DNA of 64,000 bases from a virus: positions 1 to 64,000 of the IMG/VR virus record IMGVR_UViG_3300028837_000875. One strand, given 5' to 3'. The notes beneath the pieces are model-generated. The model had not been told where the DNA came from. It saw only the letters and a list, made by a program, of their open reading frames with translations, and did not search any database. Made by a program: the position numbers and the translations under genes. The first letter of the stretch is position 1; every line of letters begins with the position of its first letter. Positions 2,929 to 64,000 of this stretch are shown here, piece after piece.

Positions 2929-2929
2929 A

Positions 2930-3600: not shown

Positions 3601-3872
3601 AGAGTCTTAAACAGCAAGTAGCAGATTTGAAAGATGAAATTAAAAAGAACAAAACTCCTCTTCGCTTGAAGGCAGAACAGCTCCAAGCAAGAATATTAGA
3701 ACTTGAGAAAGAGAAGCTACACGTTGAATTAAAATTAGGTTCTGTACAGCGTGAGAATGCTGGACTCAAGAAAGAAGTAGAAAAGCAGTGCATGGGATTT
3801 GCAGATATTGAAAGAAAACGTGAAATGCTTAAGGAGAGTAAGGATGCAAGTGACAAACATTCAAGCATCTAA
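3543..3872 (+). CDS. hypothetical coiled-coil protein
   Basis: GGAGGT RBS before ATG 3543. Confidence 0.6.
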   Translation: MSFAKAQERKQKQIQAETLKSLKQQVADLKDEIKKNKTPLRLKAEQLQARILELEKEKLHVELKLGSVQRENAGLKKEVEKQCMGFADIERKREMLKESKDASDKHSSI

Positions 3873-4551
3873 TCTGAGTGATATTTGGTTCAAGCTACTT
3901 GATAAAGTAGTTGATAGCGGAAGAGTCTACGAAGTTGGAGATGGACCATACGCAGGAAAGAAAAGACTTGAACTTGAGTTTGCCGTACTCAATGTCCACT
4001 GTCCATGGCAAAAGCTTTGGCCTGACTTAGAGCCACCACTTTTTTCTATAGAAGATTTTGAAGAATATATTGATTGGCTTTTATCAGGAATGAAGAAAGA
4101 ATTCAAAAGCTATCGGCCAACAAAGGATTACGAGTTGCTGTTTGAATCTATTCCTGAATTCAGTGTAGTAAAAAATTTAGATATAGATTTTTCTCCAATT
4201 GGTTTGCTTATTGCCAAGTATAAACGCGATGGATTCAAAACAAATCGTGCTTGCATTGAGCTTGCAGACAAGTCGGATATTGCCAGGGCATTTCCTATTT
4301 GCATTAGATTGATTGATACAAAGGTATTGTATAACAGACTCCATTTCTTTGTATACTTTCGCTCTTGGGATTTGTGGAATGAATTCTCTTTTGATTTAGC
4401 GGTCCTTGAGCGTATTAAGCTTTACGTAGCTGAGCGTATAGGTGTTGAAAGCGGAGAACTTGTGGCTTGTTCGAAGGGCATCCACTTATACGAAAAGAGT
4501 TGGAAGAAAGCCGAAGAGATAGTTGGACGAGAGATTCAATTCAAACTCTGA
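3844..4551 (+). CDS. thymidylate synthase-family paralog (possible dCMP methylase/hydroxymethylase)
   Basis: PICIRLIDT, LHFFVYFRSWDLW and KGIHLY motifs; colinear with 5281..5991; Asp at the specificity position. Confidence 0.75.
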   Translation: MQVTNIQASNLSDIWFKLLDKVVDSGRVYEVGDGPYAGKKRLELEFAVLNVHCPWQKLWPDLEPPLFSIEDFEEYIDWLLSGMKKEFKSYRPTKDYELLFESIPEFSVVKNLDIDFSPIGLLIAKYKRDGFKTNRACIELADKSDIARAFPICIRLIDTKVLYNRLHFFVYFRSWDLWNEFSFDLAVLERIKLYVAERIGVESGELVACSKGIHLYEKSWKKAEEIVGREIQFKL

Positions 4552-4588
4552 TAGATGGTATGCAAAGCAAGTTCAGGAGGAATTAGAA

Positions 4589-5284
4589 TTGAAATTATAT
4601 CATGGGACAAGTGCCAAGCGAGTTTGGCAAATTACAAAAAAGGGTATACGTCCAAGAAGTCTAACTGGTAAATCTAACTGGAATGAAGTTCCAGAATTCA
4701 AATCAAGAAACGATATGGTATATTTGACTTCTTGCTATCCGCTTTATTTTGCTGTGTGCTGTACAGAAGGAAATAGAATAGGTATAGTTGAAATAGATAC
4801 AGACAAACTTGATGTCAATAAGCTGTTTCCTGACGAAGATGTTATTGCTCAAATTCTTTCGGAGCAAACGGGTGTTTCGTTAAAAGAAACACACTCAAAA
4901 GTTAAAGCAAAACTCTTGTATATGCACGACCAGTGGGAAACTTCGCTGCAAGCCATGGGCACTTGTTGTTATCACGGACTCATTCTTCCTGAAGCATTGA
5001 CGCGCTATGCGTTGATTGACTTGAAAGGCAGAGGACAATTGATGCTCAGCATGTTAGACCCTGCCATTGCTATTCGCAATTATCAAATTAAAGGAGAGTA
5101 TTATAAAGCTTTTGTTGCTTGGGTTTTTGGAGATAGAGAAATTCTGCCTCAGTATGAAGAAACGAAAATGTTTATTGATGCAGGTATTCCAGGATTGGAA
5201 AGGCAATTCAAGTTCTGGGAAGAACAGCAGTCAAATCGTAATGGAATTGTTGTCGTTGAACTCTCGAAAGGAAAGAAGAAATGA
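4589..5284 (+). CDS. ADP-ribosyltransferase-fold (PARP/Tpt1-like) protein
   Basis: LYHGTS...I...GI.P and VYLT....YFA motifs; TTG start after CAGGAGG. Confidence 0.6.
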   Translation: MKLYHGTSAKRVWQITKKGIRPRSLTGKSNWNEVPEFKSRNDMVYLTSCYPLYFAVCCTEGNRIGIVEIDTDKLDVNKLFPDEDVIAQILSEQTGVSLKETHSKVKAKLLYMHDQWETSLQAMGTCCYHGLILPEALTRYALIDLKGRGQLMLSMLDPAIAIRNYQIKGEYYKAFVAWVFGDREILPQYEETKMFIDAGIPGLERQFKFWEEQQSNRNGIVVVELSKGKKK

Positions 5285-5991
5285 AAGTTGTTTCAATCAA
5301 TGCATTCGATTTAGATGACCTTTGGTTTAAGCTGCTTTGCGCTGTCATTGATTTTGGCCACATCTATACAATCACAAGAGGTTCATATGAAGGCCAGAAG
5401 CGACTTGAGTTTGATATGGTATACTTGCAAGTTGAAAAGCCAAGTAGTCAGATTATTCCTATTATTCCAGAAGGTATGAACATTCCGCCGCCGACTGATA
5501 TGGCATACGTAGAAAGATATATGAGTTATATTTTAAGTGGAAAGGAAGTAGAAGGTGAAGATTATACTTATGGAGAACGTTTGACAGAAGCGACTGAAGG
5601 TTCGGATGAAACGTTGAATCAAATACTTGAAGTAATTAGAATGTATAAAGAAGATGGTTTTGGTACAAATCAGGCGTGCATGGAAGTTGCTATGCCTTGG
5701 GATTTAATGATGGAATCTCCTCCTTGTTTGCGCTTGATTGATACTCGAATCAGATATGGCAAACTTCACTTCTTTGTATATTTTCGTTCTTGGGATTTGT
5801 GGGGAGGCCTGCCACCCAATCTTGCTGGCATTCAAAAGCTCAAGGAATTTATGGCCGAAGAAATTGGAGTAGAGGATGGCCAACTCTTTGCAGCATCAAA
5901 AGGATTGCATCTCTATGATTATAATTGGCCTCATGCTGAGCTAAGAACTGGAAAGAAGATTTCACTTGAAGGTAGGACAGAGGTTTCGTGA
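5281..5991 (+). CDS. thyA: thymidylate synthase (ThyA family)
   Basis: YTYGERL, PPCLR (catalytic Cys), FRSWDLWGGLPPN, GLHLY. Confidence 0.85.
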   Translation: MKVVSINAFDLDDLWFKLLCAVIDFGHIYTITRGSYEGQKRLEFDMVYLQVEKPSSQIIPIIPEGMNIPPPTDMAYVERYMSYILSGKEVEGEDYTYGERLTEATEGSDETLNQILEVIRMYKEDGFGTNQACMEVAMPWDLMMESPPCLRLIDTRIRYGKLHFFVYFRSWDLWGGLPPNLAGIQKLKEFMAEEIGVEDGQLFAASKGLHLYDYNWPHAELRTGKKISLEGRTEVS

Positions 5992-6548
5992 TAGAAGCAA
6001 TCAAAACAAAAGAGCAAAGCGTAGAGCTTTTCAGAGCAGGCTACTTTGGCAATCGTGTGCGACAATGGAATACTCTCGAAGAGTTGGATGCGGACCCCTT
6101 TGATGGCTTAGTTGTATTACGGCAAAGAAGCCGCCCTGCTGGCGGTAGAGGCATAACTATCTATGATATTGAGAAGAAACACGCATCAAAGGTCCTAAGC
6201 TCTCAGGCGTGTATAGGACAGCCTATCAGTTCTTTCTATTTCAATGAAGCAATCATTCCATCTGACGTTTTATTTCAAGGCGAGATTTGCAGAACAATCA
6301 AAGGTTTGTACTTGCTTTATTCTACACTTCCAATGCACATGCACGATGCTTTGCTGAAAGAGCCAAAGCACGCCTTTGGATTGAAAGCCAGGTTGTTGAT
6401 GGAGTACTTCCTCGATTCTTCTGGCTTGATTTGTATTTATGAATTTCTTGAGCGATTTGATGACCATGTAGTGGAGTTTACTTGTTGCTCAAAATCGTTT
6501 GGTGATTTGGGCTGGAGAACTATCATTTGGGAATGTAGAGGATTTTGA
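5988..6548 (+). CDS. hypothetical phage protein
   Basis: 186 aa; C-terminal VVEF...IIWECR. Confidence 0.65.
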   Translation: MIEAIKTKEQSVELFRAGYFGNRVRQWNTLEELDADPFDGLVVLRQRSRPAGGRGITIYDIEKKHASKVLSSQACIGQPISSFYFNEAIIPSDVLFQGEICRTIKGLYLLYSTLPMHMHDALLKEPKHAFGLKARLLMEYFLDSSGLICIYEFLERFDDHVVEFTCCSKSFGDLGWRTIIWECRGF

Positions 6549-6549
6549 A

Positions 6550-6783
6550 ATGTTAAAAATCAAAACGCTGAAAAAGAAATTGAAGCCAAAGACGCTCAAG
6601 ATAAAAGAGCTAAAGAAGAAAGAATTGAAAGTCAAGCAGATTGCTGGCACTAAAATATATGCTGGTAAGGGACTCAAAATAATATCTTGCTCAGATTGTG
6701 GCAAAAACATGGAAGTAGGAAGAGAAGCAAAAGCTGGACGTTGCAAAACATGTACTCAGAAAATGCTTTCAGGAGAAGGCTAA
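6550..6783 (+). CDS. Lys-rich Zn-finger protein
   Basis: K-rich N-terminus, CSDC...CKTC. Confidence 0.6.
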   Translation: MLKIKTLKKKLKPKTLKIKELKKKELKVKQIAGTKIYAGKGLKIISCSDCGKNMEVGREAKAGRCKTCTQKMLSGEG

Positions 6784-7007
6784 TGAATGAAAAACTGGAG
6801 TTGCAGATAGCAAAAGGTAAGAGAGTCCTCAAAGATATGAAGGACTCTCTTGAGTTTCTTAAACATCCAGCTCAACTATTAGATGTAGTAGAAGAGCTTG
6901 ACGTTGTGAGAGCTTTTCTAACTTCAACTATTTCTGGTATGGAATTCTGGGTTCAAATGAAAATAGATGAATGGGAGGCTAAGACAGATGAAAAGTGGAG
7001 TGAATGA
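6783..7007 (+). CDS. hypothetical protein
   Basis: TAATG coupling, AGGAGA RBS. Confidence 0.6.
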   Translation: MNEKLELQIAKGKRVLKDMKDSLEFLKHPAQLLDVVEELDVVRAFLTSTISGMEFWVQMKIDEWEAKTDEKWSE

Positions 7008-7518
7008 TATAACGTCAGAAAACTATGTTGAGAATGTTGTTAGAAGTGAGTCAGTTGATTTCCCGAAAATCAGAGAAAGACTGAAAGAGAAAAGACTTAT
7101 TCGATTGCTTCATTGTGCCATGGGACTCTGCACAGAAGCTGGTGAGTTCATGGACCATTTGAAGAAACATATTTTTTATGGAGCAGAATTAGACCCAGTA
7201 AACATGATAGAAGAACTGGGCGACAATCAATGGTATGTTGGTGTTGGCGTTGATGAACTTGAAGCTAAGTTCAATGAAATGTTGCAAAAGAATATTGATA
7301 AGCTTCGAGCAAGGTATCCTGAAAAGTTCGAGCCAGAGCAAGCAATCAATCGTGACTTAAAAAAAGAAAGAAGCATTCTTGAAAAGAGCAAATCAAAGAA
7401 AGGAATTCCATGTCCAGCTTGCGGCTCTCTGATAGCTGAGGATGCTGCTCAATGTTGGAAGTGCAAGATTGAATTTACGGAGGATAATAAAGATGAATCA
7501 GGTAGAGACAAAAACTAA
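6988..7518 (+). CDS. MazG-like nucleotide pyrophosphohydrolase with C-terminal Zn ribbon
   Basis: GLCTEAGEFMDHLKK...EELGD..WY and NIDKLRARYP motifs; CPAC..CWKC. Confidence 0.85.
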   Translation: MKSGVNDITSENYVENVVRSESVDFPKIRERLKEKRLIRLLHCAMGLCTEAGEFMDHLKKHIFYGAELDPVNMIEELGDNQWYVGVGVDELEAKFNEMLQKNIDKLRARYPEKFEPEQAINRDLKKERSILEKSKSKKGIPCPACGSLIAEDAAQCWKCKIEFTEDNKDESGRDKN

Positions 7519-41083: not shown

Positions 41084-41087
41084 AAAG

Positions 41088-41109
41088 AGTCAACCTTACT
41101 CGGATAGAT
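41088..41109 (+). promoter_or_regulatory. conserved motif, candidate phage-specific promoter (copy 1)
   Basis: AGTCAA-N3-TACTCGGATAGAT, 19/22 identical to 56393-56414. Confidence 0.6.
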
Positions 41110-41134
41110 GATGATTGTATGAAGGATTATATCT

Positions 41135-50543: not shown

Positions 50544-51593
50544 ATGGTTAAGTTGAATGCAGCATTGATTGATGAAGTCAATGAGCTTTTTGAAAGAGGC
50601 GTCATCATTGACTTGGATATTTCCTGGTGGTCAGGACAGGCGAAATTGAGAGCAGAAGATTTGGGCATCCCGAAAGATGACATCAATCTTGATTTATTCT
50701 CGCTCGGTAGGAAGCGGTTCATATCTAAGAATTGGATTGGCCGCTTTCGCAAGTATGAGCAGAAGGGACGCGCCCTTGTTGACGAATATTCTTTCAGATT
50801 CAAGAGAGGTGCAAATTCATTTGTCCCGCTCGATGCTCTTCCGGCAATGCTTGAGAGATTGAATGACTGCAAAGAGAATTTCCTCAAGGTCGTCCAAGGC
50901 TTTGCTGAGCAGTATCCAATGATAAAGAGAAAGATGATTGTGGCCTGGGGCGAAGAGGTTCCGAAAATATACAAGCGTCTGAAATCTTTCGGAGCAAAGG
51001 TCCCGAGTGTAGAAACATTCGAGAAACGTTTCATGGAAGCAGTCAAGAACTGGTATCCGAAGGACCCAACTATTTTCTTCAGATACACTTGGTCGTTTCA
51101 TGAACTGACTTTGCCTCGGCAGTTCAAAGAGAAAGAAGTCAAGCTGAAAAGAAAGCTCAAGAAAGCGGACCTTGAAAGAGCAAAGCAAAGAGCATTGATT
51201 CAGAAATATAATGATGGCTTGCAGAATCAAGTCAGCGATTTTCTTGAGTCAGTTGTTCGCCAGCTAAGAAGCTCAACTGTTGAGCTTGCAGAAAGAGTAC
51301 GCAAGCAGATAACAGACGGAAGCGTTACTGATAACAGACTTGATAGGCTCCGTGAGTTCATCGACAAATTCACGAAGCTCAACTTTATGAATGACCGCGA
51401 GGTTGAAGTTTCTCTTCAGGACCTTAAGAAAAATCTTGAGCATACAGCAGAGGAATACAAATCTAATGAGGAGCTTGAGTCTGCTCTTCGCGGTTCGCTC
51501 GGAAAAGTAATCAAGATTGCATCGAAGAATGGCGCGGCTGTTCTTGCTTCTGCTTTCAGCAGGAAGCGCAAAGTCGTCCGTCGCAAAAAGTAA
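50544..51593 (+). CDS. DUF3150-like protein
   Basis: IDLDISWWSGQAKLRAEDLGI..SLGRKR..FVP N-terminal motif. Confidence 0.6.
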   Translation: MVKLNAALIDEVNELFERGVIIDLDISWWSGQAKLRAEDLGIPKDDINLDLFSLGRKRFISKNWIGRFRKYEQKGRALVDEYSFRFKRGANSFVPLDALPAMLERLNDCKENFLKVVQGFAEQYPMIKRKMIVAWGEEVPKIYKRLKSFGAKVPSVETFEKRFMEAVKNWYPKDPTIFFRYTWSFHELTLPRQFKEKEVKLKRKLKKADLERAKQRALIQKYNDGLQNQVSDFLESVVRQLRSSTVELAERVRKQITDGSVTDNRLDRLREFIDKFTKLNFMNDREVEVSLQDLKKNLEHTAEEYKSNEELESALRGSLGKVIKIASKNGAAVLASAFSRKRKVVRRKK

Positions 51594-51616
51594 TAAGAAT
51601 TGAAAGGAGAATAGAG

Positions 51617-53164
51617 ATGGGATTTAAGACAGAAATTACCAGCCACATAGCAGCTGGCTACTCGATTCTATATGTGCAGAGCTATGAAGAACTCAGAGCA
51701 CGCATCGTCCTTCGCGACGTTGCTGAAAAGCTCGAAAAGAAATTCTATCTTTGGTCGTCAACCATCGGCCTTTGCGCTGTAGAAGGCGACGAGCTTACAA
51801 AGATAGAAGAGACGCAAAGCCCAGAAGAATTGCTGAGTCATCTTTTCGAGAGCTTCACTGAAGAGATGGCAGTTATCGTGCTTTGCGATTTCCACGAGTT
51901 CATGGACGACCCAATGGCAAAGAGAGTCATTCGTGAACTTGGCTCTCGCTTCAAAGAGAAAGGAAACAACTTAATTTTTCTCTCGCCAATTATGAAGCTT
52001 CCTCAGGAGTTGAAGAAAGACGTGACGCTCGTTGAGTTTGACTTGCCAAACAAGGAAGAGCTTGCGAAAGTTGTTGAGGAAGTTGGCGAAGAAAACGAAG
52101 TTGAAATAAATAATGGACAGCTTGATAAAGTTCTTGAAGCTGTTCTTGGTTTGACTACGATAGAAGCGGAAAACGCTCTTGCTCTTTCAGTGTACAACCA
52201 TAATGAATTCTCTCCTGCTGAGCTAATGAAAACCAAAGCAGCAACAATCAAGAAGTCAGGAATACTCGAGTACTTCGAGTCTGATTTCACATTGGAAGAT
52301 GTTGGCGGCTTTCCAGTGCTCAAGGAATGGCTGAGACTCAGAGAGCTTGCATTCACAAAGGAAGCAAGAGAATACGGAATAGACCCGCCGAAAGGTGCGT
52401 TGCTTCTTGGCGTACCAGGCTGCGGCAAAACGCTGTTAGCGCGTGCGGTTGCCAATGCCTGGGGTATGCCATTGCTCAAGCTCGACCTTGGCCGTGTATT
52501 CGGTTCGCTGGTAGGTCAGTCAGAAGAAAACATGAGAGCAGCGATTCAACTTGCGGAAGCAGTAGCCCCTTGCATTCTCTTTGTAGACGAAATCGAGAAA
52601 GGACTTGCAGGAGCCGGAGGCGGTGGCAAGCATGATTCAGGAGTCACGGATAGAGTGTTCGGCACATGGCTGTCCTGGATGCAAGATAAGAAGTCTCAAG
52701 TATTCGTCATTGCTACAGCGAATAATATTGAGGCTCTTCCTGCACCGCTGCTCAGAAAAGGAAGATTCGATGAAATGTTTTTCGTCGACCTTCCAACAGA
52801 GGAAGAAAGAAAAGAGATATTCAATATTCATCTGAGCAAGCGCAACCGCAAGCCGAAAAACTTTGACTTAAACGAGCTTGTCAGACAGACGGATAATTTC
52901 ACTGGCTCTGAAATTGAGGAAGCAGTCAAGTCTGGGCTGTTCCATTCTTTCTCGGAAAATCGAGAGCTTGAGACAAAGGATATTGTTCGAGTCATTAGAG
53001 GAACGGTACCGCTAAGCAAAACAATGTCACTTCAGCTTGATGCTATTCGCAAGTGGGCTAAGGACAGAACGGTTAACGTCTCTTGCTCTGGTTCCGAAAA
53101 GAAGCTCTTGAAGAAAAAAGTTATTCGCAAAATCAAAGGCCGCGGTAACAGCTCACTCAATTAA
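51617..53164 (+). CDS. Ycf46-like AAA+ ATPase
   Basis: SYEE.R, DFHEF, DVGG...LKEWL, GVPGCGKT, DEIEKG, LLRKGRFDE, IRKWAK.R. Confidence 0.9.
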   Translation: MGFKTEITSHIAAGYSILYVQSYEELRARIVLRDVAEKLEKKFYLWSSTIGLCAVEGDELTKIEETQSPEELLSHLFESFTEEMAVIVLCDFHEFMDDPMAKRVIRELGSRFKEKGNNLIFLSPIMKLPQELKKDVTLVEFDLPNKEELAKVVEEVGEENEVEINNGQLDKVLEAVLGLTTIEAENALALSVYNHNEFSPAELMKTKAATIKKSGILEYFESDFTLEDVGGFPVLKEWLRLRELAFTKEAREYGIDPPKGALLLGVPGCGKTLLARAVANAWGMPLLKLDLGRVFGSLVGQSEENMRAAIQLAEAVAPCILFVDEIEKGLAGAGGGGKHDSGVTDRVFGTWLSWMQDKKSQVFVIATANNIEALPAPLLRKGRFDEMFFVDLPTEEERKEIFNIHLSKRNRKPKNFDLNELVRQTDNFTGSEIEEAVKSGLFHSFSENRELETKDIVRVIRGTVPLSKTMSLQLDAIRKWAKDRTVNVSCSGSEKKLLKKKVIRKIKGRGNSSLN

Positions 53165-53187
53165 GATAATAGAAAGAGAGGTGACAA

Positions 53188-53583
53188 ATGTCACATTGGT
53201 CAACAGTTGAAACTGAATTCACAAATGAGCAAGGATTGATTGATGCTCTTAAGGAGATGCATCCAGAACATGAAGTAGTCAAAGGTGGCAACGTGCGCGG
53301 CTACCAAGGGACGCAGAAAGCTGATATCGTCCTGAAGGGAAAGAACATGACGCGCAGTTCTGGATTTGATATCGGATTCAAGAAGAATGCCAATGGAATG
53401 TACTCAGAAATTTCCGATTGGTATGGACTTGATTGGCTTGGAGATAAGTCAACGTTCCAAGATAGATTGAAACAGAGCTATGCCAAGGCAGTCGTCAAAA
53501 GGCGTGCGAAGAAATTCGGCTGGACCATCAAAGAAAAGCAGCAAGAAGATGGAACAGTCAAACTCTCTCTGACAAAATTCTAA
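53188..53583 (+). CDS. DUF1257 (Ycf35-like) protein, copy 1
   Basis: MSHWSTVET, VRGYQG, DIGF, LKQSYA. Confidence 0.8.
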   Translation: MSHWSTVETEFTNEQGLIDALKEMHPEHEVVKGGNVRGYQGTQKADIVLKGKNMTRSSGFDIGFKKNANGMYSEISDWYGLDWLGDKSTFQDRLKQSYAKAVVKRRAKKFGWTIKEKQQEDGTVKLSLTKF

Positions 53584-53598
53584 GAAAGGAAGTGAGCT

Positions 53599-53790
53599 GT
53601 GAGAATAAGAAAAGAAATCATCGTCACGATAGGAACAAAAGGCGAGACAAAGATTGAAGCCAAAGGTTTCAAAAACCGAGAGTGCTTGAGAGCGACTCAG
53701 CCGTTTGAGGAAGCTCTCGGTAAAATCTCCAACAGAAAAATGAAGAGACCAGTTGAGACTCAGAAGGAGACGCAGAGCCTTGGAAACTAA
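53599..53790 (+). CDS. DUF2997-like protein
   Basis: I.VTIG.KGE.KIEAKGF...CLRATQPFEEALG. Confidence 0.75.
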   Translation: MRIRKEIIVTIGTKGETKIEAKGFKNRECLRATQPFEEALGKISNRKMKRPVETQKETQSLGN

Positions 53791-53950
53791 AATAGAAATC
53801 ATCATTGAATCAGACGGCAAAATTAAATCTTGGTGGTCACCAGAGTTCGAGGAACTCGTATCAGAAGTGGCTACTGAAAAAATAGAGAATAGAGAAGGGG
53901 GTCCCCAGCCAATCGGGGACCTGCCCTTCCATCCTGAATTTTGCGGATGA
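53780..53950 (+). CDS. small protein with DUF2997-like N-terminus
   Basis: TTG after AAGGAG; IEIIIESDGKI. Confidence 0.5.
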   Translation: METKIEIIIESDGKIKSWWSPEFEELVSEVATEKIENREGGPQPIGDLPFHPEFCG

Positions 53951-54069
53951 AAGCTGGATATAGATAAATGAAGCTTCAAAAGCATTCAAGACACCGCCTC
54001 ATACCCTGTAGGAGGCCGTCTAACGAAGCACCTAATGGTTCTATATGCTGGCTTTCAGGGAGGGAATAG

Positions 54070-54468
54070 ATGTCTCATTATTCAGAAGTAGATACGGCGT
54101 TCAGAGATAGAGACTGTCTCGTTGAATCTCTGCAAGAGATGGGTTATCAAGTAGAGATTCACGAAGGTGAAGGCTCTAATCTTTTTGGTTATCAAGGAGA
54201 CAAGCGAGAGCAGAAAGCAAACGTAATTGTTAGGCGTCAATTTGTTGGACGCTCTTCAAATGATTTGGGCTGGAAGTGGAACGCGAATAGCGGATGCTTC
54301 ACTCAGATTATTTCTGAGTTCGACCAATACACAAGCAAGCTTGACGAAGGCAAGCTAAAACAAATGTATGCTGAGAAGAAAGTGACTAAGAAAGCACGTA
54401 AGCTTGGTTACAGAATCAAGCGCAATGTTGAGGACGGAGCTGTTCAGCTTACGTTGGTGAAATACTAA
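54070..54468 (+). CDS. DUF1257 (Ycf35-like) protein, copy 2
   Basis: MSHYSEVDT, LFGYQGD.R, SSNDLGW, LKQMYA. Confidence 0.85.
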   Translation: MSHYSEVDTAFRDRDCLVESLQEMGYQVEIHEGEGSNLFGYQGDKREQKANVIVRRQFVGRSSNDLGWKWNANSGCFTQIISEFDQYTSKLDEGKLKQMYAEKKVTKKARKLGYRIKRNVEDGAVQLTLVKY

Positions 54469-56357: not shown

Positions 56358-56386
56358 GGGGAAGCTCTGCGGAGCTTCCTTTTTTT
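56358..56386 (+). terminator. intrinsic terminator
   Basis: GGAAGCTC-TGCG-GAGCTTCC followed by T7. Confidence 0.85.
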
Positions 56387-56392
56387 ATGTTT

Positions 56393-56414
56393 AGTCAATG
56401 CTACTCGGATAGAT
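56393..56414 (+). promoter_or_regulatory. conserved motif, candidate phage-specific promoter (copy 2)
   Basis: AGTCAA-N3-TACTCGGATAGAT. Confidence 0.6.
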
Positions 56415-56450
56415 AGATATAAAGAGAATTCAATTAAGCAGTAGGAGCAG

Positions 56451-57758
56451 TTGATGAAGGACAATCTGGTTATCGGTGGAGGCATATCAGGCCTCATTTT
56501 TTGCTATTACAATCCTGAGTTTTATTTGATTACAGATTCTCTTGGAGGCTTGCTCAAACAAGAGGGTAAATTTGGAGTAATGACTTTATGGGATACTCCA
56601 GAAACTCGAAAGCTCTTAAAAGATTTAGATATTGAAGTCAAGCCGTACAAGGCAGAGATTAGATATTTCTTCAATGGTAAAATTTATGAAGTGGCTCCTG
56701 ACGTTTTGCGTCGTGAATACATTCAAAAAAAGATGGGGCAGCTTGCACACAAAATTGACTTTGCAGATTTGGCTTTGTCTACTGACGAGACGAATTATAT
56801 TCCTGCTCTCAAAGTTGACTTTGATGTGCTCATGGAAAAGTTGCTGCACGAAGTTGAGAGCCGAAAGAATTATATGATAGCTACAATTTCAGAAATTCGA
56901 GATGATTCAATTACTCTTTATGATATGAAGAGTCCTTCAAGAATAATGAAATATAAAACGCTTGTCTCTACTATCCCAGCATTTCTATTTTGGTTGATGT
57001 GGAAAGGACGAGAGTGCAGAGAAGTTTGTGTTCCAGGAGAATTTGCTTTCAGTCCAACTACTACAGTTTCTATGAAAGCTCCTCATAAAAATTTGATTTC
57101 ACTCTTTGATGAAATGAACGGAATGATTCCAGCGTATATCTATTATCTTGATAACTCAAGATTTCATAGATTCTCGCACAGCTCTCAAGGCTGTTACGCT
57201 TTTCAGTTTGCAGGAGAGATTTCAAAGGAAGAGATTGCAATATATCTTGAAGTAGATGAATCTGATTTAGAATATCGAGTCGAGAAGATAGGGCAGTTCG
57301 TTACGCACAAGGGTAACATTCCTCCACGCAATATTATGTTTCTTGGAAGGCATGCGCAATGGGATTATAAAGTTAAGGTCCAGGACATTGTGCGTGTCTC
57401 TCGATTCTCTAAGTTCATGCTTGCTGATATGAGGAGCAGGCAATCAAGATTCAATAAGAACTTTATGGACTTCAATTCGCTGAGCTTTGAAGATAGACAG
57501 CGATTGACTGAGAAGTGGATTCTGTATGTGCAGGCAGAGTTGACCGAACTCTTGGACGAAACAAACTGGAAGTTGCATCGGCCTGGAAAGGAGATTGAAA
57601 AGAGCAAGATATTAAATGAGTGGATTGATTCTTTGAAGTTTTTATTAGGTATTGCAGATATTTGGGGCTTTGACAATGCGGAGATATTCAAGGCGTTCCA
57701 CGATAAGAGCGACTTTGTTGAGAAACGTTTTCAGGAGGAAGAGAAGAATGGGAAATGA
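56451..57758 (+). CDS. FAD-dependent oxidoreductase fused to dimeric dUTPase/MazG-like domain
   Basis: IGGGISG, LVSTIP, FLGRHAQWDY; C-terminal ELTELLDETNWK.H..EWID.LKF. Confidence 0.75.
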   Translation: MMKDNLVIGGGISGLIFCYYNPEFYLITDSLGGLLKQEGKFGVMTLWDTPETRKLLKDLDIEVKPYKAEIRYFFNGKIYEVAPDVLRREYIQKKMGQLAHKIDFADLALSTDETNYIPALKVDFDVLMEKLLHEVESRKNYMIATISEIRDDSITLYDMKSPSRIMKYKTLVSTIPAFLFWLMWKGRECREVCVPGEFAFSPTTTVSMKAPHKNLISLFDEMNGMIPAYIYYLDNSRFHRFSHSSQGCYAFQFAGEISKEEIAIYLEVDESDLEYRVEKIGQFVTHKGNIPPRNIMFLGRHAQWDYKVKVQDIVRVSRFSKFMLADMRSRQSRFNKNFMDFNSLSFEDRQRLTEKWILYVQAELTELLDETNWKLHRPGKEIEKSKILNEWIDSLKFLLGIADIWGFDNAEIFKAFHDKSDFVEKRFQEEEKNGK

Positions 57759-58683
57759 GTTTGAGTCAATCACAGAGTTCCATGGCAAGAAAATGTTGAA
57801 TGCATTTCATAAAGGAGAGAAGCCGAAAACAGATTTCAAAGATTCTTCGGATTCTGTTAGAGTTGCTTTGCTTAATTATTCTCCAAGTGTATACGAGGAC
57901 ATGTTCTGGTTCATCATGGGCTCGTATGGAAACGAAGCCAACAAGAGAAAGCAGTTCACTCCTTCAGAGGAAGATATTGAAAAGGTTATTGAAGCTTGCT
58001 TGAATCGTGAAGCAATGCCGTTAGCTCTTGAAATTCCGAAGTTTACTTTCGTAATATGGGGCATTGATAGAATCATCACTCACCAGATAGTCAGAAACAG
58101 AATTGGTGTTGTGTATTCTCAACACTGTACGGGAGACAATGACATACGTCATGTAGATTTTCTCCTGCCACATCGAATGATAGGAGCAAACACAGAGGAC
58201 GAAGTAGATTTCAGGATGCGAGTGAAGGAATGGCATAGAGTTGGCAAGGCACTCTACGCAGAAGGCATTGACGTCCATGGATATTCCATGCAGGACATGA
58301 GGCACATGATGCCGCAGGACGTGGATACGTACGTAATGATGAGTTGTAATTACATGATGCTTCAGAACTTTGTCGGCCGGCGTCTCTGCTCAAATGAGAC
58401 GATGCAGATTCAGCGAGTAGCAGAATTGATTAAAGAGGAAGTGACAAAGGTCTATCCGTTTCTTGGTCGTCATCTAATGAGCAATTGCGATAGAGCAAAG
58501 AGATGTCACTTCAAGAAGAATGGAACAATCTTTGGAGGTTCTGTTTATTATCCTTGCGGCAAGTATCCATGGAGCAGCAAAGAAGCTCCTGACCCGGAGG
58601 CATTCATTCACCCTATGACTTCAGAAGAAATCAGACAGGTAGAGAATCCGGCTTACAGACATTTAGAATCTGAGCAGGATTAG
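57748..58683 (+). CDS. divergent ThyX-like flavin-dependent enzyme
   Basis: FTFVIWGIDRIITHQIVRNRIG..YSQ, QDMRHMMP, FVGRRLC. Confidence 0.75.
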   Translation: MGNEFESITEFHGKKMLNAFHKGEKPKTDFKDSSDSVRVALLNYSPSVYEDMFWFIMGSYGNEANKRKQFTPSEEDIEKVIEACLNREAMPLALEIPKFTFVIWGIDRIITHQIVRNRIGVVYSQHCTGDNDIRHVDFLLPHRMIGANTEDEVDFRMRVKEWHRVGKALYAEGIDVHGYSMQDMRHMMPQDVDTYVMMSCNYMMLQNFVGRRLCSNETMQIQRVAELIKEEVTKVYPFLGRHLMSNCDRAKRCHFKKNGTIFGGSVYYPCGKYPWSSKEAPDPEAFIHPMTSEEIRQVENPAYRHLESEQD

Positions 58684-58825
58684 CTCTATCAGAATCAGAG
58701 CCTCAAATAGGGCAAGAAGCGTCCTAGGACCCTGTCTGAGGCCATTGAATAGATTATCTTAGGTATGATATAGCTGAGGCATATAGTTCTGAAGGACAGC
58801 GTATTATCAAAAGGCTCTGATAGAG
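58684..58825. repeat. intergenic element with terminal inverted repeats
   Basis: CTCTATCAGA..TCAGAGCCT / AGGCTCTGATAGAG; GTCCTAGGAC palindrome. Confidence 0.55.
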
Positions 58826-58835
58826 GATTCAATCC

Positions 58836-59375
58836 ATGATAATTTCAGTAGAAGGACCTGACGGATGTGGAAAGACAAGCTTTGCAAAAGAGCTTGAAAA
58901 GAAAACAGGCTTGCCAATAATCGAGTACAACTTTCAGATTGTTGGAGGCAATAGAAAAGAAGAACTTGCATATATTCAAATGCTTTCGTTTGTTGCCATC
59001 TCTTTTCATTTTAATTTCATCCGTGATAGGCATCTAATGTCTAATATGGTTTATGCATCTATATTTTCTGATGATTGTTATTGGCGTAAATATCTTGAGC
59101 TAATAGAAAGGACTCAAATACTCATTGCATATATTCACGTTCCAGCAGAAGAATTGATTAAGAGAATCAAGCAGCGTGAAGCAAGTGATGGAATTAAAGA
59201 GCCTGAAGATATACTTCTAAACTTGTTGGTGGCACATGAAAGTTTTGAAACTGCTTATTTTGAAATCAAGAAAAGATTTCCAGAGAAGATAATCAAACTT
59301 GATGGCTTGCTGACAATTGAGGATATGGTCAGTGATTATTTCAAGAAAAGACTCCAGCAAGAAAGGCAAACATGA
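58836..59375 (+). CDS. deoxynucleoside monophosphate (thymidylate-type) kinase
   Basis: ISVEGPDGCGKTS, DRHLMSNMVY, RIKQR. Confidence 0.85.
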   Translation: MIISVEGPDGCGKTSFAKELEKKTGLPIIEYNFQIVGGNRKEELAYIQMLSFVAISFHFNFIRDRHLMSNMVYASIFSDDCYWRKYLELIERTQILIAYIHVPAEELIKRIKQREASDGIKEPEDILLNLLVAHESFETAYFEIKKRFPEKIIKLDGLLTIEDMVSDYFKKRLQQERQT

Positions 59376-60427
59376 AACCTTATACTGAAAAGAAATTCGA
59401 GAAAATCTTTCCTTGGTTTGAAGCAATCAATCTTGATTTGCTGAAGGCACCAGTTGCAGTAAGACTTTTGGTGACAGATAAGTGCGCTTGCAAATGTCAC
59501 ATGTGTACGCACTGGAAGATGAAAAAGTTTTACTCGCTCGATTATAAAACGTTCAGTTCAATTGTGCTTGCTTGTCAGAACAATGGAACTCAATCTATGT
59601 TTCTTTCAGGAGGAGATGTCTTTTCTTGGGAGTGCTGGGAAAGATTTTTGAAAGATGAAGAAATTACAATTGCTGCTCTGACTGTTACGCCATTGATAAT
59701 TCCAAAAAGCTTTGACAAAGATTTGCTCAAGAGACTCAAATGGCTACGAGTTTCTTTTGATGCAATCAAGAGTGAAACGTTCAAAAAAATCAGAGGCGTA
59801 AACGCGTTGTCATCTGTAAAGCATGACTTGTCTTATATCCTCGCTAACAAATTGGTAGAGGATATCGGCATGACAACTGTTTTGCAGAAGGATAATTTTT
59901 CAGAGATTATAGAGATGGGTGAATACTTCGTTAACTTGGGCATCAAGAGATGGATAGTTCAGCCAGTCAATTATAATCCAAGGCTCAGCTTAACTCCTGA
60001 AGCAATACAAATGCTTGGCTATCAGTTGAGCAAGAAGTTTGGTGAAGCCATACCAACAAACAATTTCGATGTCCTTCAAAGCGATTTCAGTCTTTGGAAT
60101 TCTACTCACAATCTGCCTTGCATAATTCCGCGCATGGAAGCATTCATTGATACAAGACTCAGGGTATGGCCTTGCTGCAATCTTGCTCAAGATGCGCACG
60201 GAGATGAAGAAAGAGCAGAGAGATTGAAAATGGGTACGTTTATACAAGGCGCAAGTGCCGGTGAATATTTCCTTGAGCTTTGGCGTGAACGTAGAAATCT
60301 GCTCGATAAATTTACTGACTTCAAAGACATTCATCCTTTATGCAAGCAGACATGTAAGTTCAAATACTTCTACTATAATCTTGGCTTTGATTGGTGCAGA
60401 AAAAACAGAGAAGCTATTTATATTTGA
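59372..60427 (+). CDS. radical SAM protein with SPASM/Twitch-like C-terminus
   Basis: CACKCHMC, LSGGD, VSFDA, PC..WPCC..CKQTC. Confidence 0.9.
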   Translation: MKPYTEKKFEKIFPWFEAINLDLLKAPVAVRLLVTDKCACKCHMCTHWKMKKFYSLDYKTFSSIVLACQNNGTQSMFLSGGDVFSWECWERFLKDEEITIAALTVTPLIIPKSFDKDLLKRLKWLRVSFDAIKSETFKKIRGVNALSSVKHDLSYILANKLVEDIGMTTVLQKDNFSEIIEMGEYFVNLGIKRWIVQPVNYNPRLSLTPEAIQMLGYQLSKKFGEAIPTNNFDVLQSDFSLWNSTHNLPCIIPRMEAFIDTRLRVWPCCNLAQDAHGDEERAERLKMGTFIQGASAGEYFLELWRERRNLLDKFTDFKDIHPLCKQTCKFKYFYYNLGFDWCRKNREAIYI

Positions 60428-60438
60428 TAGGATGTAAT

Positions 60439-61053
60439 GTGCCTCAAATTTCAGAAAGAATGCTGATTAGGAAACACCGATTTCATTTGGAGCGTTCTAT
60501 TCAAGAATGTTCAGAGTGCAGCATACATAGAAACGAAGAGAATATACAATCCAAATCTATGGGTAATGGCAATTGCTATGACCCTGATATTTTTTTCATA
60601 GGCTTAGCTCCTTCTCAGAATAGACGGCCGCTCAAGCAAGATAAGCATGGCAACAAAATTCCTCTAAGAACATTTGAGTATTTAGTAGGTGGAAGATTTA
60701 GAAGATTGCTCAAGAGCTTAGGACTATATGAGAGAAGCTATCTAACAAATCTACTCAAGTGCAGCACTCCTGATAATAGAAAACCAAAACACACAGAAAT
60801 AAAAAATTGCTCAGTATGGTTTCACAAGGAATTCAATATGCTATCTCCCAGAGCCATTGTCCCTTTGGGCAATGTTGCAAGACGTGCTCTCGAAAGAACG
60901 ATGCAAATGACAGATGACAACAGAGGATTTTTATTTGGCGTAGAGGTAATCGTCATCAATTGCTTTCATCCGAATTATTGTTATAGCTATGGTGGAATAA
61001 CTGAGGAACGTTATGCCGAGCTATTATTAAAAGTAGAGAAAGAGTTAGAGTGA
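60439..61053 (+). CDS. uracil-DNA glycosylase superfamily protein (family 4/5, Fe-S type)
   Basis: CSEC, IGLAP, YLTNLLKC..NRKP..EIKNC, LGNVA, HPNY. Confidence 0.85.
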   Translation: MPQISERMLIRKHRFHLERSIQECSECSIHRNEENIQSKSMGNGNCYDPDIFFIGLAPSQNRRPLKQDKHGNKIPLRTFEYLVGGRFRRLLKSLGLYERSYLTNLLKCSTPDNRKPKHTEIKNCSVWFHKEFNMLSPRAIVPLGNVARRALERTMQMTDDNRGFLFGVEVIVINCFHPNYCYSYGGITEERYAELLLKVEKELE

Positions 61054-64000
61054 AAAGATTTCCTAAAAAGTTAGACATGACCATTCCGGAATATGAAGAG
61101 GATAAACATCTGTATACACCCATTCATGTTCATTCTTCGTATTCTCTTTTTGATTCAGTCAGCACAATCATGGAGATTCCAGAAGTTGCCAAGAAGCTTG
61201 GAATGAAAGCTGTCTCTTTATCTGACCATGGAACAATGAGCGGTACGTTTTCTTTTGTCGAGCATTGCAAAAGTAGTGGAGTTAAACCAATTGTAGGCTG
61301 TGAGTTCTATGTCAATCCAAGAAGATTAAAAAAAGATAAAGATGCAAACAACCAACACTTGTGTTTGTTTGCAATGAACATGGAAGGATGGAAGAATCTA
61401 CTCAAGATAACTTATGACGCAGTTACTAATGGATTCTACTTCAGGCCAAGAACAGATTTGGATTTTATAGCTGAGCATTCGGAAGGACTCATTTGCACTA
61501 CTGCTTGCATGGCCTCGCCAATCATCAAGCCGTTTCTCGATGATAATAAAAAGCAAGCTCTAAACAACTTGAAAAAGTTGAAAGAAGTTTTTGGAGATAG
61601 GCTGTACATAGAATTTCAATTCAACGAATTGGATATTCAAAAAAAGATTGTAGACTGGCTTGAATTTATTACCAAACGCTTTGGTCTCAAATCTTTGTAT
61701 GGACTTGATTCTCATTACACGTATCCGAATGATGTGTATCTGCAAGATATTATAAAACTCAATAGAAGAAAGATGACTGTATATGATGCCAATTGGCAGG
61801 AGGCGATTTTTGATATACGTAGACTTTTTATTAAGCCGTTTCAAGTGGCTCTCGACGAACCTGAGGAACTGGGATTCAAAGTAACCAAACAACGAGTTCG
61901 GTCACTTTTAGAAACAACTAATGAGCTTGCAGGTAGAATTCATTTTGAGTTTGAATTAGGATTGCACGCACCTGTTTATGAGCATCGTGGCAAAGCGGTA
62001 GACCAAGCCAAGTTTTTGAAGCTTCAAATTCAACGCGGCTTCTTGAAGAAAATCAAACAAGGTATGATTCCAAAAGGACAAGAGGAAGCTTATAGAAAAA
62101 GAACATGGTATGAATATGAGCAGATACTTAAATGCGGTTATCCAAATTATTTCTTAATGATTTGGGATATGGTTCGCGTTGCTGTAAGGCGTGGAATACA
62201 AAAGGGCATAGGCAGAGGCAGTGCTTCTGGTTCGCTTGTGTCTTTTGTTCTTGATATAAGCGGAGTGGACCCCATCAAACATGGCTTGCTCTTCGAGAGA
62301 TTTCTTGACGTAGAAAGAAAAGACCCACCAGATATAGATTTAGACTGGGAATCAGAACGCAGAAATGAGATTGAAGATTATCTTGTCGAGAAGTATGGAA
62401 AAGAAAAAGTAGCTCATGTTGCAACGTTCAGTTATTGGGGAACAAAGTCTGCTCTCAGTGAAGTATTCAAAACGCTTGGAGAAGATGGAAGTCCTATCTT
62501 CGAGATGTCAAAATGGATTCGTTCTGATGAAAAAGACATTCGATATGCAAAGCATGTTGATGATGCTATTGAATGGCTGAGAAAATATTGTCCGAAAAAT
62601 GAAGTGATAGATTTAGTTGATAGACAAATGGAACTGGGCGTACCGCTTGCAAAGCGGCTGGTTGATAATGTGCGTCATGTAGGTTTGCACGCCGGAGGAA
62701 TTGTCGTCTCTCCTAAGCCGATATGGGAATACATTCCAGTGATTCAGCATAAAGGAAAAATTGTAACTGGTTTTCCTCAGAGTTCAGAAATACGAAGAGG
62801 AGAATGGGGAACGCTTGAGAAAATAGGATTGATAAAGATTGATAATCTTGGAGTCAATTCAGTCTCTACAATTAAAGCAACACTTCTCTTGATAAAAGAG
62901 AGGCATGACTTAGATTTGTTTGAGCATATATGGAAAGTTGAGTTAGATGATTCTGAGGTATATCGTTTTTATGCTGAGTGTTTTACGGAAGGTGTATTTC
63001 AAGTAGAGTCAGATAGCATAAACAATTTTATCAGAAGATTGAAGCCAAGCAATTTCAGTGACATCTGTGCTCTTATGGCTTTGTATAGACCAGGTAGTTT
63101 GCAATCAGGAGAATCAGAACGCTTTATAAAGCGCAAGGCTGGAAAAGAGAAGATTGAATATGTACATCCAAAGCTCAAGAAATATCTTGAGGATACGTAT
63201 GGGTGTTTTGTTTATCAAGAGCAGCTAATGTTTATCATGCAAGAGCTGGCTGGCTTTGGAAAAGGAGAAGTTCTACGCAAGATGAAACTTCTCAAGCAAG
63301 CATATGATGTCAACAATGTAGATGTGCTTGCAATGGTAAAGCGATTGAGAGAGGAATTGATAAGGCTTTCTAACTTTACAGAAAAGCAAGCAGATGAATT
63401 AACTGAAATGATGCGCAAGTGTTATGCGTATATCTTCAACAAATCTCACGCGACTTCTTATGCGTTCTTCTCATACCAAATGATGTGGCTTAAAGTACAT
63501 TATCCTATTGAGTTCTTTTGTGGATTGCTTTCTCGCACGGAGAATCAAATCACAGAATTGAAAGGTGGTGCAATCAAGTTAAAAATTAAGAAGTATATCT
63601 CCGCAGCAAAAAAGCTTGGCATCACAGTTCTTCCTCCAAAGTTTGGAGTATCTGGAAGTGAATTCAAAATTATAGATGACAGCACAATTGTTGCTGGTAC
63701 TCGCATCATAGTTGGCATCGGCAAATCAGCGGCAGAGCTTGACAAGACTGTGGATGATTCCTGCTTTGAGGATTTTGTCTGCAATGAAAATATACAGTGG
63801 CAGAAACTCAACAAAAGTAAAGTTGAGAAGCTAATAAAAATTGGCTACTTTGATGATTCAGTAAAGACAAGAAAGAGCATCACCAAAAAACAATTAGTAC
63901 ATGCATGGAAGCTTTACAACGAGAGAAAGAAAAAGAAATGTGAAAGAGATACGATAGTAGAAGCAATCAAAGAATCAGTCAAGATAGTTGAAGGAGAATA
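61050..64000 (+). CDS. dnaE: DNA polymerase III alpha subunit (3' end beyond window)
   Basis: GTG 61050; PHP HVHSSYSLFDS, SDHG; GRGSASGSLV, FERFL, PPDIDLD, FNKSHA; absent from ORF track, consistent with no stop inside the window. Confidence 0.92.
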   Translation, partial: MKRFPKKLDMTIPEYEEDKHLYTPIHVHSSYSLFDSVSTIMEIPEVAKKLGMKAVSLSDHGTMSGTFSFVEHCKSSGVKPIVGCEFYVNPRRLKKDKDANNQHLCLFAMNMEGWKNLLKITYDAVTNGFYFRPRTDLDFIAEHSEGLICTTACMASPIIKPFLDDNKKQALNNLKKLKEVFGDRLYIEFQFNELDIQKKIVDWLEFITKRFGLKSLYGLDSHYTYPNDVYLQDIIKLNRRKMTVYDANWQEAIFDIRRLFIKPFQVALDEPEELGFKVTKQRVRSLLETTNELAGRIHFEFELGLHAPVYEHRGKAVDQAKFLKLQIQRGFLKKIKQGMIPKGQEEAYRKRTWYEYEQILKCGYPNYFLMIWDMVRVAVRRGIQKGIGRGSASGSLVSFVLDISGVDPIKHGLLFERFLDVERKDPPDIDLDWESERRNEIEDYLVEKYGKEKVAHVATFSYWGTKSALSEVFKTLGEDGSPIFEMSKWIRSDEKDIRYAKHVDDAIEWLRKYCPKNEVIDLVDRQMELGVPLAKRLVDNVRHVGLHAGGIVVSPKPIWEYIPVIQHKGKIVTGFPQSSEIRRGEWGTLEKIGLIKIDNLGVNSVSTIKATLLLIKERHDLDLFEHIWKVELDDSEVYRFYAECFTEGVFQVESDSINNFIRRLKPSNFSDICALMALYRPGSLQSGESERFIKRKAGKEKIEYVHPKLKKYLEDTYGCFVYQEQLMFIMQELAGFGKGEVLRKMKLLKQAYDVNNVDVLAMVKRLREELIRLSNFTEKQADELTEMMRKCYAYIFNKSHATSYAFFSYQMMWLKVHYPIEFFCGLLSRTENQITELKGGAIKLKIKKYISAAKKLGITVLPPKFGVSGSEFKIIDDSTIVAGTRIIVGIGKSAAELDKTVDDSCFEDFVCNENIQWQKLNKSKVEKLIKIGYFDDSVKTRKSITKKQLVHAWKLYNERKKKKCERDTIVEAIKESVKIVEGE

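Follow-up and report, generated by a model that had tools for sequence, protein, structure and literature searches.

A UGM-like flavoprotein, pyrophosphatase and ThyX-like cassette in a viral genome as a candidate route to non-canonical thymidine

The known thymidine hypermodifications all start at 5-hydroxymethyl-2′-deoxyuridine (5-hmdU), which is provided by an enzyme of the thymidylate synthase (TS) family (PMC8989533). In phages M6, ViI, SP10, PhiW-14 and PaMx11 the pathway combines a C5 synthase for dUMP with a kinase, a pyrophosphatase and tailoring enzymes of the flavin or radical S-adenosylmethionine (SAM) type, clustered near the replication genes (PMC8989533). A similar combination is seen in the stretch of DNA described here, bases 1-64000 (hereafter the window) of the 88,571-bp IMG/VR viral record IMGVR_UViG_3300028837_000875, which is linear and ~78% complete; a run of six genes encodes a fusion of a flavoprotein to a nucleoside triphosphate (NTP) pyrophosphatase, a ThyX-like protein, a deoxynucleoside monophosphate (dNMP) kinase, a radical SAM enzyme, a protein related to uracil-DNA glycosylase (UDG) and a DnaE-type polymerase (Table 1). 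The enzymes themselves differ, however, as the entry enzyme of the five phage pathways is a dUMP hydroxymethylase of the ThyA type and they rely on 5-HMUDK and aGPT-Pplase/AADT, none of them has ThyX or a flavoprotein resembling UDP-galactopyranose mutase (UGM), and the radical SAM enzyme gp53 of M6 and the MnmC-like flavin adenine dinucleotide (FAD) enzyme gp47 of PaMx11 belong to families other than those of the window. Judged from profile comparison and synteny, the window carries a divergent variant of a cassette of flavoprotein, ThyX and pyrophosphatase that is present in cultured phages, where it is unannotated.

A repurposed TS-superfamily enzyme with a flavin and a dNMP kinase is also seen in the glycosylation of 5-hydroxycytosine by RB69, DLP3 and RL38J1; in the last of these a ThyA-type 5-hydroxy-dCMP synthase is combined with UGM, glycosyltransferases and a Tmk-like kinase, the true UGM supplying the furanose donor (PMC13326640). 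Closer to the present locus are the Pbunaviruses F8 and 14-1, long regarded as unmodified and possessing no homologues of known modification genes, in whose DNA about a quarter of T is replaced, in a TG context, by new nucleosides, with masses of 362 and 390 U, that are sugar-alcohol or pentose derivatives of thymidine (PMC12191111, a 2025 preprint). By our own arithmetic, 362 and 390 U are what results when a tetritol or a pentose, respectively, is joined to 5-hmdU (258) with loss of water. A literature search found no later paper naming the genes behind this modification.

The cassette in the window, in cultured phages and in uncultured relatives

The first gene of the run encodes a Rossmann-type flavoprotein domain with the motif VIGGGISGL, joined to an all-alpha domain that scores 27.9 bits against Pfam dUTPase_2 (cut-off 22.9) and whose acidic metal-binding motifs ExxE...ExxD (AELTE and EWID) are conserved in the family alignment (A1), which bears out the fusion described in an earlier note on this DNA as flavoprotein-dUTPase, the dUTPase activity being putative. 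UGM gave the best structural match to the flavoprotein fold, with PPOX and amine oxidases nearly equal in score. The tentative likeness to UGM (Glf) comprises the three-domain organisation and a C-terminal GRxAxW/Y motif, and UGM itself binds a uridine nucleotide and acts through N5 of its reduced flavin, as does ThyX. The window flavoprotein is shorter than UGM, at ~320 versus 360-500 amino acids, and was not matched by Pfam GLF (PF03275), which found one of 19 relatives at E 0.021. There was no match for the fusion protein in the PDB by phmmer, for the fusion protein or the radical SAM protein in cultured phages by tblastn, for the region in phages by megablast, or in single-sequence scans of IMG/VR; the link of the flavoprotein to cultured phages surfaced solely via profile comparison.

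In Xanthomonas phage XcP1, a 311-amino-acid hypothetical protein (XcP1_050) is encoded directly upstream of ThyX (XcP1_049), with DnaE downstream, and XcP1_050 matches the flavoprotein profile (91.8%). Aligned by hhalign with just one PB1-like gp68 sequence, A1 scored weakly (23%); this was resolved by a five-member profile of the cultured proteins (XcP1_050 and PB1-like gp68 type), which matches the window family at 96.9% (hhalign, E 1.8e-10, 270 columns). Relatives of the flavoprotein were found in 362 cultured phage records, ~290 of them Pbunavirus and the remainder phages of Escherichia, Serratia, Rhizobium, Xanthomonas, Pantoea and Ralstonia, the carrier genera including Pbunavirus, Carpasinavirus, Myosmarvirus and Kylevirus. 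These are approximately the same records as those with ThyX matches, and all five cultured carriers that were checked have ThyX and lack a ThyA-family gene.

The gene order in cultured phages runs Dda helicase, hypothetical protein, flavoprotein, ThyX, NTP pyrophosphatase (in Kyle), PNK/HAD, a FabG-like short-chain dehydrogenase/reductase (SDR), exonuclease and DnaE. In the Pbunavirus-type cassette (gp68/gp62), as in the window, homologous flavoproteins are encoded upstream of ThyX within a replication module that uses DnaE, and Kyle has the NTP pyrophosphatase nearby, whereas in the window the flavoprotein is fused to the NTPase, the ThyX has a CTGD loop, and the places of PNK/HAD and the FabG-like SDR are taken by a Tmk-like kinase and a radical SAM enzyme (for PNK/HAD no dedicated search was made). 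A 355-amino-acid neighbour in XcP1 that was considered as a radical SAM enzyme is a HAD/PNKP phosphatase.

The ThyX-like protein probably starts at the ATG that lies behind AGGAGG and overlaps the upstream stop, giving 311 rather than 343 amino acids. It passes Pfam Thy1 (Table 1) and misses the equivalog TIGR02170 (44.7 bits against a cut-off of 87.9), and its predicted structure (pLDDT 84) has the ThyX fold, with Foldseek matches to the Thermotoga maritima and Mycobacterium tuberculosis enzymes at E ~1e-10 and a target TM-score of at most 0.80. Residues were mapped by profile alignment to these two proteins and are given in T. maritima numbering. R78, R80, R147 and R174 are retained, together with the Asn residues equivalent to N163/N169, and R147 and R174, which come from neighbouring subunits, are the invariant R185 and R212 of alignment A3. 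H53 is changed to I and H79 to N (EH to EI and RHR to RNR), and the substrate loop S88-G89-R90-Y91 is replaced by C-T-G-D followed by an extra xDxRH, so that the ThyX motif RHR-x7-S-x-R(Y) is broken by H79N, S88C, R90G and Y91D. In ThyX, R78, R80, S88 and R90 hydrogen-bond dUMP (PMC3498832). This protein and the known ThyX enzymes (T. maritima TM0449, M. tuberculosis ThyX and PBCV-1 A674R) have in common their fold and the arginines that bind phosphate and base, while the CTGD loop, RNR, EI and extensions at both termini, with a CD-x5-C...PCG motif, set this protein apart. With the Thy1 match, the missed equivalog and the replaced R90/Y91, the earlier description of the ThyX as non-canonical is upheld, although two of its features were set aside as signs of novelty, namely the loss of H53/H79, which is common in viral ThyX retaining the S-x-R motif, and the C-terminal Cys motif, which is common to the whole viral clade; the C-T-G-D loop is the sole feature peculiar to the ThyX-like family. 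FAD and a pyrimidine dNMP are the probable ligands of the protein.

With the flavoprotein family alignment, 22 loci were retrieved from IMG/VR; in most of these a ThyX-family gene comes straight after the flavoprotein, whether the latter is fused to the NTPase or lies next to it. ThyX is present in 20 of the 23 flavoprotein-bearing records, including all five complete genomes. The NTPase is a separate gene in L018, L019 and L020, and a reverse search with the ThyX-like signature gave eight further loci, with the NTPase directly upstream in five; it stands alone upstream of the ThyX-like gene in L031, L036, L039, L041 and L042. Tmk-like kinases lie near the module in nine of the 23 flavoprotein-bearing records and three of the eight further ThyX-like loci. 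By this gene content the NTPase and the ThyX-like protein form the tightest pairing, the core consists of the NTPase, the ThyX-family enzyme and the kinase, and the flavoprotein is a frequent partner. The run in the window is a mosaic, a replication and nucleotide module with a three-protein core cassette, rather than as one pathway. Of the undescribed pathway proposed in the earlier note, the conserved cassette of flavoprotein-NTPase, ThyX and kinase remains, and the UDG and the radical SAM enzyme drop out of its core; the supposed specific association with DnaE was also rejected, as the module adjoins DnaE, PolB or PolA across the loci.

Further genes are inserted in the module of some relatives. 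In L014, L018, L020 and L021 the flavoprotein and the ThyX-like gene are separated by a nucleotide-sugar epimerase/dehydratase (the L014 protein, 11116-12024, is NAD-dependent and scores 173 bits against Pfam Epimerase), a SAM methyltransferase occupies the same position in L008 and L012, and an HD 5′-nucleotidase is another insert. A protein of 314-339 amino acids with a faint glycosyltransferase-like Pfam match (E 0.0096) is encoded directly upstream of the flavoprotein in L007 (2255-3199), L008 and L012. ThyA-like neighbours are also seen, as a fusion of an HhH-GPD glycosylase-like domain to an Asp-type ThyA-like domain right after the ThyX-like gene (L009:12275-13168, also L010 and L011) and as mini proteins of ~170 amino acids with the Cys, RSxD and Asp (L014:13044-13562, L020 and L021); all have Asp at the N177 position and are of the dCMP type. 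The complete genome G014 encodes a canonical ThyX as well as the ThyX-like protein.

What the cassette may make

In our view it is as likely as not that the cassette serves to make, or to decorate, a non-canonical thymidine. Past the folds and motifs, all of the functional steps are inferred. The pyrophosphatase, with its domain and metal-binding motifs in place, would convert dUTP, and perhaps dTTP, to the monophosphate. The ThyX-like protein, whose fold and binding arginines are retained, would, with reduced FAD, attach a one-carbon unit at C5 of the pyrimidine; because the R90/Y91 loop is rebuilt, the product may not be, or not only be, dTMP, and the simplest candidate is 5-hydroxymethyl-dUMP, formed if the exocyclic methylene captures water. 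The kinase would bring this product back into the dNDP pool, for use by the phage DnaE. The UGM-like flavoprotein may prepare or handle a nucleotide-linked sugar or polyol for later decoration of the base, a role suggested by its fold, by the epimerase and SDR neighbours and by the Pbunavirus nucleosides, and by analogy the flavoprotein with an adjoining SDR would be the set expected for preparing a sugar donor. The radical SAM/SPASM enzyme would add a lineage-specific tailoring step, while the UDG would be left to the polymerase.

The same cassette could be the genetic basis of the sugar-type thymidine hypermodification of Pbunavirus. Since 5-hmdU from a TS-family enzyme is the starting point of every known thymidine hypermodification and ThyX is the sole such enzyme in the carriers, ThyX is the candidate source. 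In its widest form, the proposal is that a clade of ThyX accompanied by a UGM-like flavoprotein constitutes the first ThyX-type entry to DNA hypermodification, its product being 5-hydroxymethyl-dUMP or another, related dUMP substituted at C5, that the flavoprotein and its SDR, epimerase or radical SAM partners build the decoration, that this explains Pbunavirus, and that the CTGD-type ThyX and the radical SAM enzyme of the window encode a further, as yet unobserved derivative; taken whole, this is a tentative reading and, in our judgement, less likely than not. Further points counted in favour of a modification are the additional canonical ThyX of G014, the two atypical ThyA paralogues and MazG in the window, the loss of R90 and the epimerase/dehydratase between flavoprotein and ThyX-like gene in four loci.

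In Pseudomonas therapy, Pbunaviruses rank with the most frequently employed phages, and for their recently discovered hypermodification the cassette is a concrete candidate gene set. If the proposal is true, DNA hypermodification would gain a route based on ThyX, involving novel flavin and possibly radical SAM chemistry; phage ThyX could no longer be annotated by default as just a thymidylate synthase, and the prediction of phages with modified DNA, and hence of the defences acting on them, such as END nucleases and type IV restriction, would improve. If the cassette is not responsible, a widespread accessory flavoprotein of ThyX would still be defined, as would family-4 UDG as a recurrent accessory of phage DnaE.

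A number of observations weigh against a modification. The connection with the Pbunavirus nucleosides is one of co-occurrence only, and no experiment ties the cassette to any modification. The modification there is partial and TG-specific, which requires enzymes acting on DNA, and with three quarters of T still canonical the role of ThyX in these phages may be just to make dTMP; the sequence context also implies that at least part of the chemistry is post-replicative, so that of the purely pre-replicative modification envisaged in the earlier note only the link to a modification, through co-occurrence, is retained. Pfam matches to GT1, GT2, epimerase and SDR (adh_short) are absent from the 88.5-kb record (78% complete), the lack of glycosyltransferases agreeing with what the earlier note had seen. 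General Pfam and PHROGs scans of the open reading frames gave no annotation as 5-hmdU DNA kinase or amino-acid:DNA transferase, although no models specific to these were used. The survey of gene neighbourhoods suggested in the earlier note found the cassette conserved in most of the 22 loci, yet the flavoprotein domain is absent from seven of the eight further ThyX-like loci, where the NTPase stays in five, and elsewhere the flavoprotein pairs with ThyX proteins that retain the S-x-R motif. A conserved RH four residues past the GD of the loop might stand in for R90, and the ThyX-like gene is the sole TS-family gene of G002 and G004, both small complete genomes, a finding that fits a plain supply of dTMP.

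Plain supply of dTTP is a serious, if somewhat doubtful, explanation of the whole run, with a dUTPase, a divergent but ordinary ThyX, a thymidylate kinase and a flavoprotein serving as redox helper (e.g. as an NAD(P)H-driven reductant of the ThyX FAD), the UDG and DnaE keeping uracil out of DNA and nothing non-canonical being made. The ThyX-like residues speak on both sides of it, since R78, R80, R147 and R174 are retained, S88C is known as a solved variant of T. maritima ThyX (3g4c) and the H53/H79 loss occurs in viral ThyX otherwise keeping the motif, but R90/Y91 are changed to G-D across the whole family and the TIGR02170 score is half of its cut-off. A helper role for the flavoprotein agrees with its being dispensable beside the tight NTPase and ThyX-like pair and with the binding of NAD(P)H by eukaryotic UGMs (5vwt, 5vwu), which are its best fold matches; ThyX is, however, reduced directly by NADPH, and we know of no flavoprotein of the UGM-like fold class that acts as a ThyX reductase. 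In gene content, a supply role suits G002 and G004, the ThyA-like neighbours, which are dCMP-type and hence not redundant with a dUMP methylase, and the lack of any match to a trimeric dUTPase or dCMP deaminase in the record, which leaves a source of dUMP needed. Against it stand G014, which retains a canonical ThyX too, the epimerase, SDR, radical SAM and methyltransferase inserts, with no role in dTMP synthesis, and the carriers of the homologous cassette that do have modified T (PMC12191111).

The chemistry could instead lie on cytosine, as in T4, RB69 or RL38J1, which we regard as improbable. The NTPase would then be a dCTPase (that of T4 is a member of the all-alpha NTP-PPase superfamily) and the UGM-like domain would make a sugar donor, the two working with the kinase and with the Asp-type ThyA of the window, whose product would be 5-methyl-, 5-hydroxymethyl- or 5-hydroxy-dCMP, and the ThyX-like protein would be just a neighbouring thymidylate synthase. 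Asp-type mini-ThyA proteins adjoin the module in L009-L011, L014, L020 and L021 and RL38J1 unites comparable enzymes, but the ThyA of the window is 52 kb from the cluster and keeps D169, so that by the published rule it is not a 5-hydroxy-dCMP synthase (PMC13326640), the GT1 and GT2 searches detected no glycosyltransferase in the record, and a ThyA-family gene is lacking in G002, G004 and the five cultured carriers, all of which possess the flavoprotein and ThyX. For the radical SAM enzyme alone, an independent action on NTPs in the manner of viperin or MoaA, in counter-defence or host take-over and unrelated to the cassette, is very improbable. Its profile has weak matches to MoaA and viperin-like enzymes, users of GTP and CTP, among its nearest solved relatives (SuiB, MoaA, SkfB, viperin-like and PqqE), but the best is the peptide maturase SuiB and every match spans just the shared radical SAM core. 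The enzyme also recurs beside the flavoprotein in the distant L009, and a different rSAM/SPASM protein lies between flavoprotein and ThyX in L013 and L015, which argues that radical SAM chemistry is tied to the module.

The remainder of the run and its surroundings

Coordinates of the features in the window are collected in Table 1.

Table 1. Features of the gene run and of the second pyrimidine cluster (positions in the window)
Feature	Position	Strand	Evidence or remark
ThyA paralogue, dCMP type	3799..4551	+	Catalytic Cys, RSWD, Asp at N177, Phe at L143 position
ThyA paralogue, dUMP type	5281..5991	+	PPC, RSWD, Asn at N177, Ser at Escherichia coli L143 position
MazG-like dNTP pyrophosphatase, second house-cleaning enzyme	6967..7518	+	Pfam MazG 26.8 bits; phrog_229 138 bits
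Intrinsic terminator, end of upstream unit	56358..56381	+	10-bp stem, 5 GC pairs, then T-run
Promoter-like motif AGTCAA-N3-TACTCGGATAGAT	56392..56415	+	Second copy 41087-41110
Fusion protein, 434 aa	56454-57758	+	Flavoprotein domain and all-alpha NTP pyrophosphatase domain
Flavoprotein domain, residues 1-322	56454..57419	+	UGM/PPOX/amine-oxidase-type fold
All-alpha dNTP pyrophosphatase domain (dimeric dUTPase/MazG type), residues ~323-434	57420..57758	+	dUTPase_2, phrog_173
ThyX-like flavin-dependent C5 transferase (predicted), rebuilt substrate loop	57748..58683	+	Pfam Thy1 (PF02511) 74.7 bits, gathering score 24.8
P-loop dNMP kinase (Tmk/dNK-like)	58836..59375	+	Pfam Thymidylate_kin 33.8, dNK 32.7 bits; phrog_761 64.7 bits
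Radical SAM enzyme, SPASM/twitch-like C-terminus	59372..60427	+	CxxxCxxC, GGD, 5 C-terminal Cys
Family-4 UDG-like Fe-S protein	60391..61053	+	Pfam UDG 57.6 bits
DnaE-type replicative polymerase	61050..64000 (ends 64505 of record)	+	PHP, DNA_pol3_alpha, finger, HHH_6; 1151 aa

In the radical SAM family, C-ACK-C-HM-C and LSGGD are invariant, as are five C-terminal Cys, compared to seven in a full SPASM domain. The window protein falls short of Pfam Radical_SAM (20.5 against 29.5 bits) and has no SPASM match, while its homologue in L009 passes both. Among the named NCBIfam subfamilies (MoaA, viperin, PqqE, W-cofactor maturase and others) the best score was 35 bits against cut-offs of 180-400, and the family is rare, with six clusters among 5.8e9 proteins and six matches at E<=1e-30 among 1.84e9 representatives. 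Homologues occur in L004, L009 (hhalign 98%) and L019. On these scores the enzyme appears to be from an undescribed subfamily and, rather than a fixed part of the pathway proposed in the earlier note, a rare lineage-specific addition that is a candidate for tailoring. The rSAM/SPASM proteins of L013 and L015 were rejected as homologues (hhalign just 5.7%), as was a kinship with the UDG-linked 'DNA repair rSAM' TIGR03916, a family missing from the NCBIfam scan results.

The UDG-like protein, which may start at the ATG at 60460, keeps the four Fe-S Cys and the motif-B His, with CSEC, KC, NC and FHPNY aligning to the Thermus thermophilus enzyme (1ui0). Its motif A is GLAPS rather than GE[AG]PG and is reminiscent of family 5, and the protein scores 65.2 bits against TIGR00758 (cut-off 125.3). 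In four relatives a UDG domain is fused to the N- or C-terminus of DnaE (L022:6049-11268, L015:15199-19746, L009:4440-8720 and L011:23-901), and it is missing from the closest relative, L004; this argues that the UDG belongs to the polymerase, as a predicted accessory, and its assignment as the editor of a modification pathway was given up. In the SPO1-type fusion a family-4 UDG is attached to a phage DNA polymerase, and the first name of TIGR00758 came from this fusion. The likeness is that of a family-4 UDG attached to or adjoining a phage replicative polymerase; the partner here is, however, DnaE and not PolA, and motif A is GLAPS. The DnaE-UDG proteins of L022 and L015 also carry inteins.

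Nearly all genes of the window lie on the + strand, and the six genes of the run were all confirmed there, tightly packed from 56454 onward. The promoter-like motif AGTCAA-N3-TACTCGGATAGAT has two copies in the window at <=3 mismatches compared to none expected by chance, both of them intergenic and upstream of + strand genes. With a strong terminator before the run and no convincing one within it, co-transcription is plausible; the gene run behind a conserved motif that the earlier note described is therefore real in its six genes and its motif, although the motif has just two copies and co-transcription is not shown. The sole sizeable gap, 152 nt between the ThyX-like gene and the kinase (58684-58835), lacks a convincing terminator, and no gene was called on its + strand.

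A second pyrimidine cluster (2407-7518) encodes a phosphatase (phrog_335), the Asp-type ThyA, a 253-amino-acid open reading frame (ORF), the Asn-type ThyA, a 186-amino-acid ORF and MazG. The Asn-type protein retains C146, R166/S167/D169 and N177 in an alignment to Lactobacillus casei TS but is divergent (Pfam 44 bits; TIGR03283 96.8 against 174.55) and lies under every NCBIfam cut-off. The ThyA paralogues were typed by the Asp/Asn and L143 rules of a recent study, in which the residue at the L143 position correlates with a methyl or hydroxymethyl product, a bulky L143 shutting out water and giving methyl (PMC13326640). By these rules the Asn-type protein appears non-canonical, its Ser correlating with a hydroxymethyl product, in place of the canonical ThyA of the earlier note, and the redundancy of ThyX that had been argued from it does not hold, the ThyA-like neighbours in other loci being dCMP-type. 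The cluster suggests a separate modification of dCMP, of the methyl type by the published rules, and perhaps synthesis of 5-hmdUMP.

Just upstream of the run, at 50544-54468, lies a DUF3150, AAA+ ATPase and DUF1257 module, of which the DUF3150 and AAA+ genes are kept at 49-60% identity in L004 and DUF1257 is unmatched there. Downstream of DnaE are genes for RecA, Mre11/Rad50-like proteins, an MT-A70 DNA methyltransferase (L002:11231-11836), FEN, RuvC and a class II-type ribonucleotide reductase; RecA, Mre11/Rad50-like, FEN, RuvC and the reductase place the run in a larger replication and nucleotide module. The reductase gene lies beyond the window, at 73941-77201 of the record (L002:13941-17201), and is split by an intein with an HNH endonuclease.

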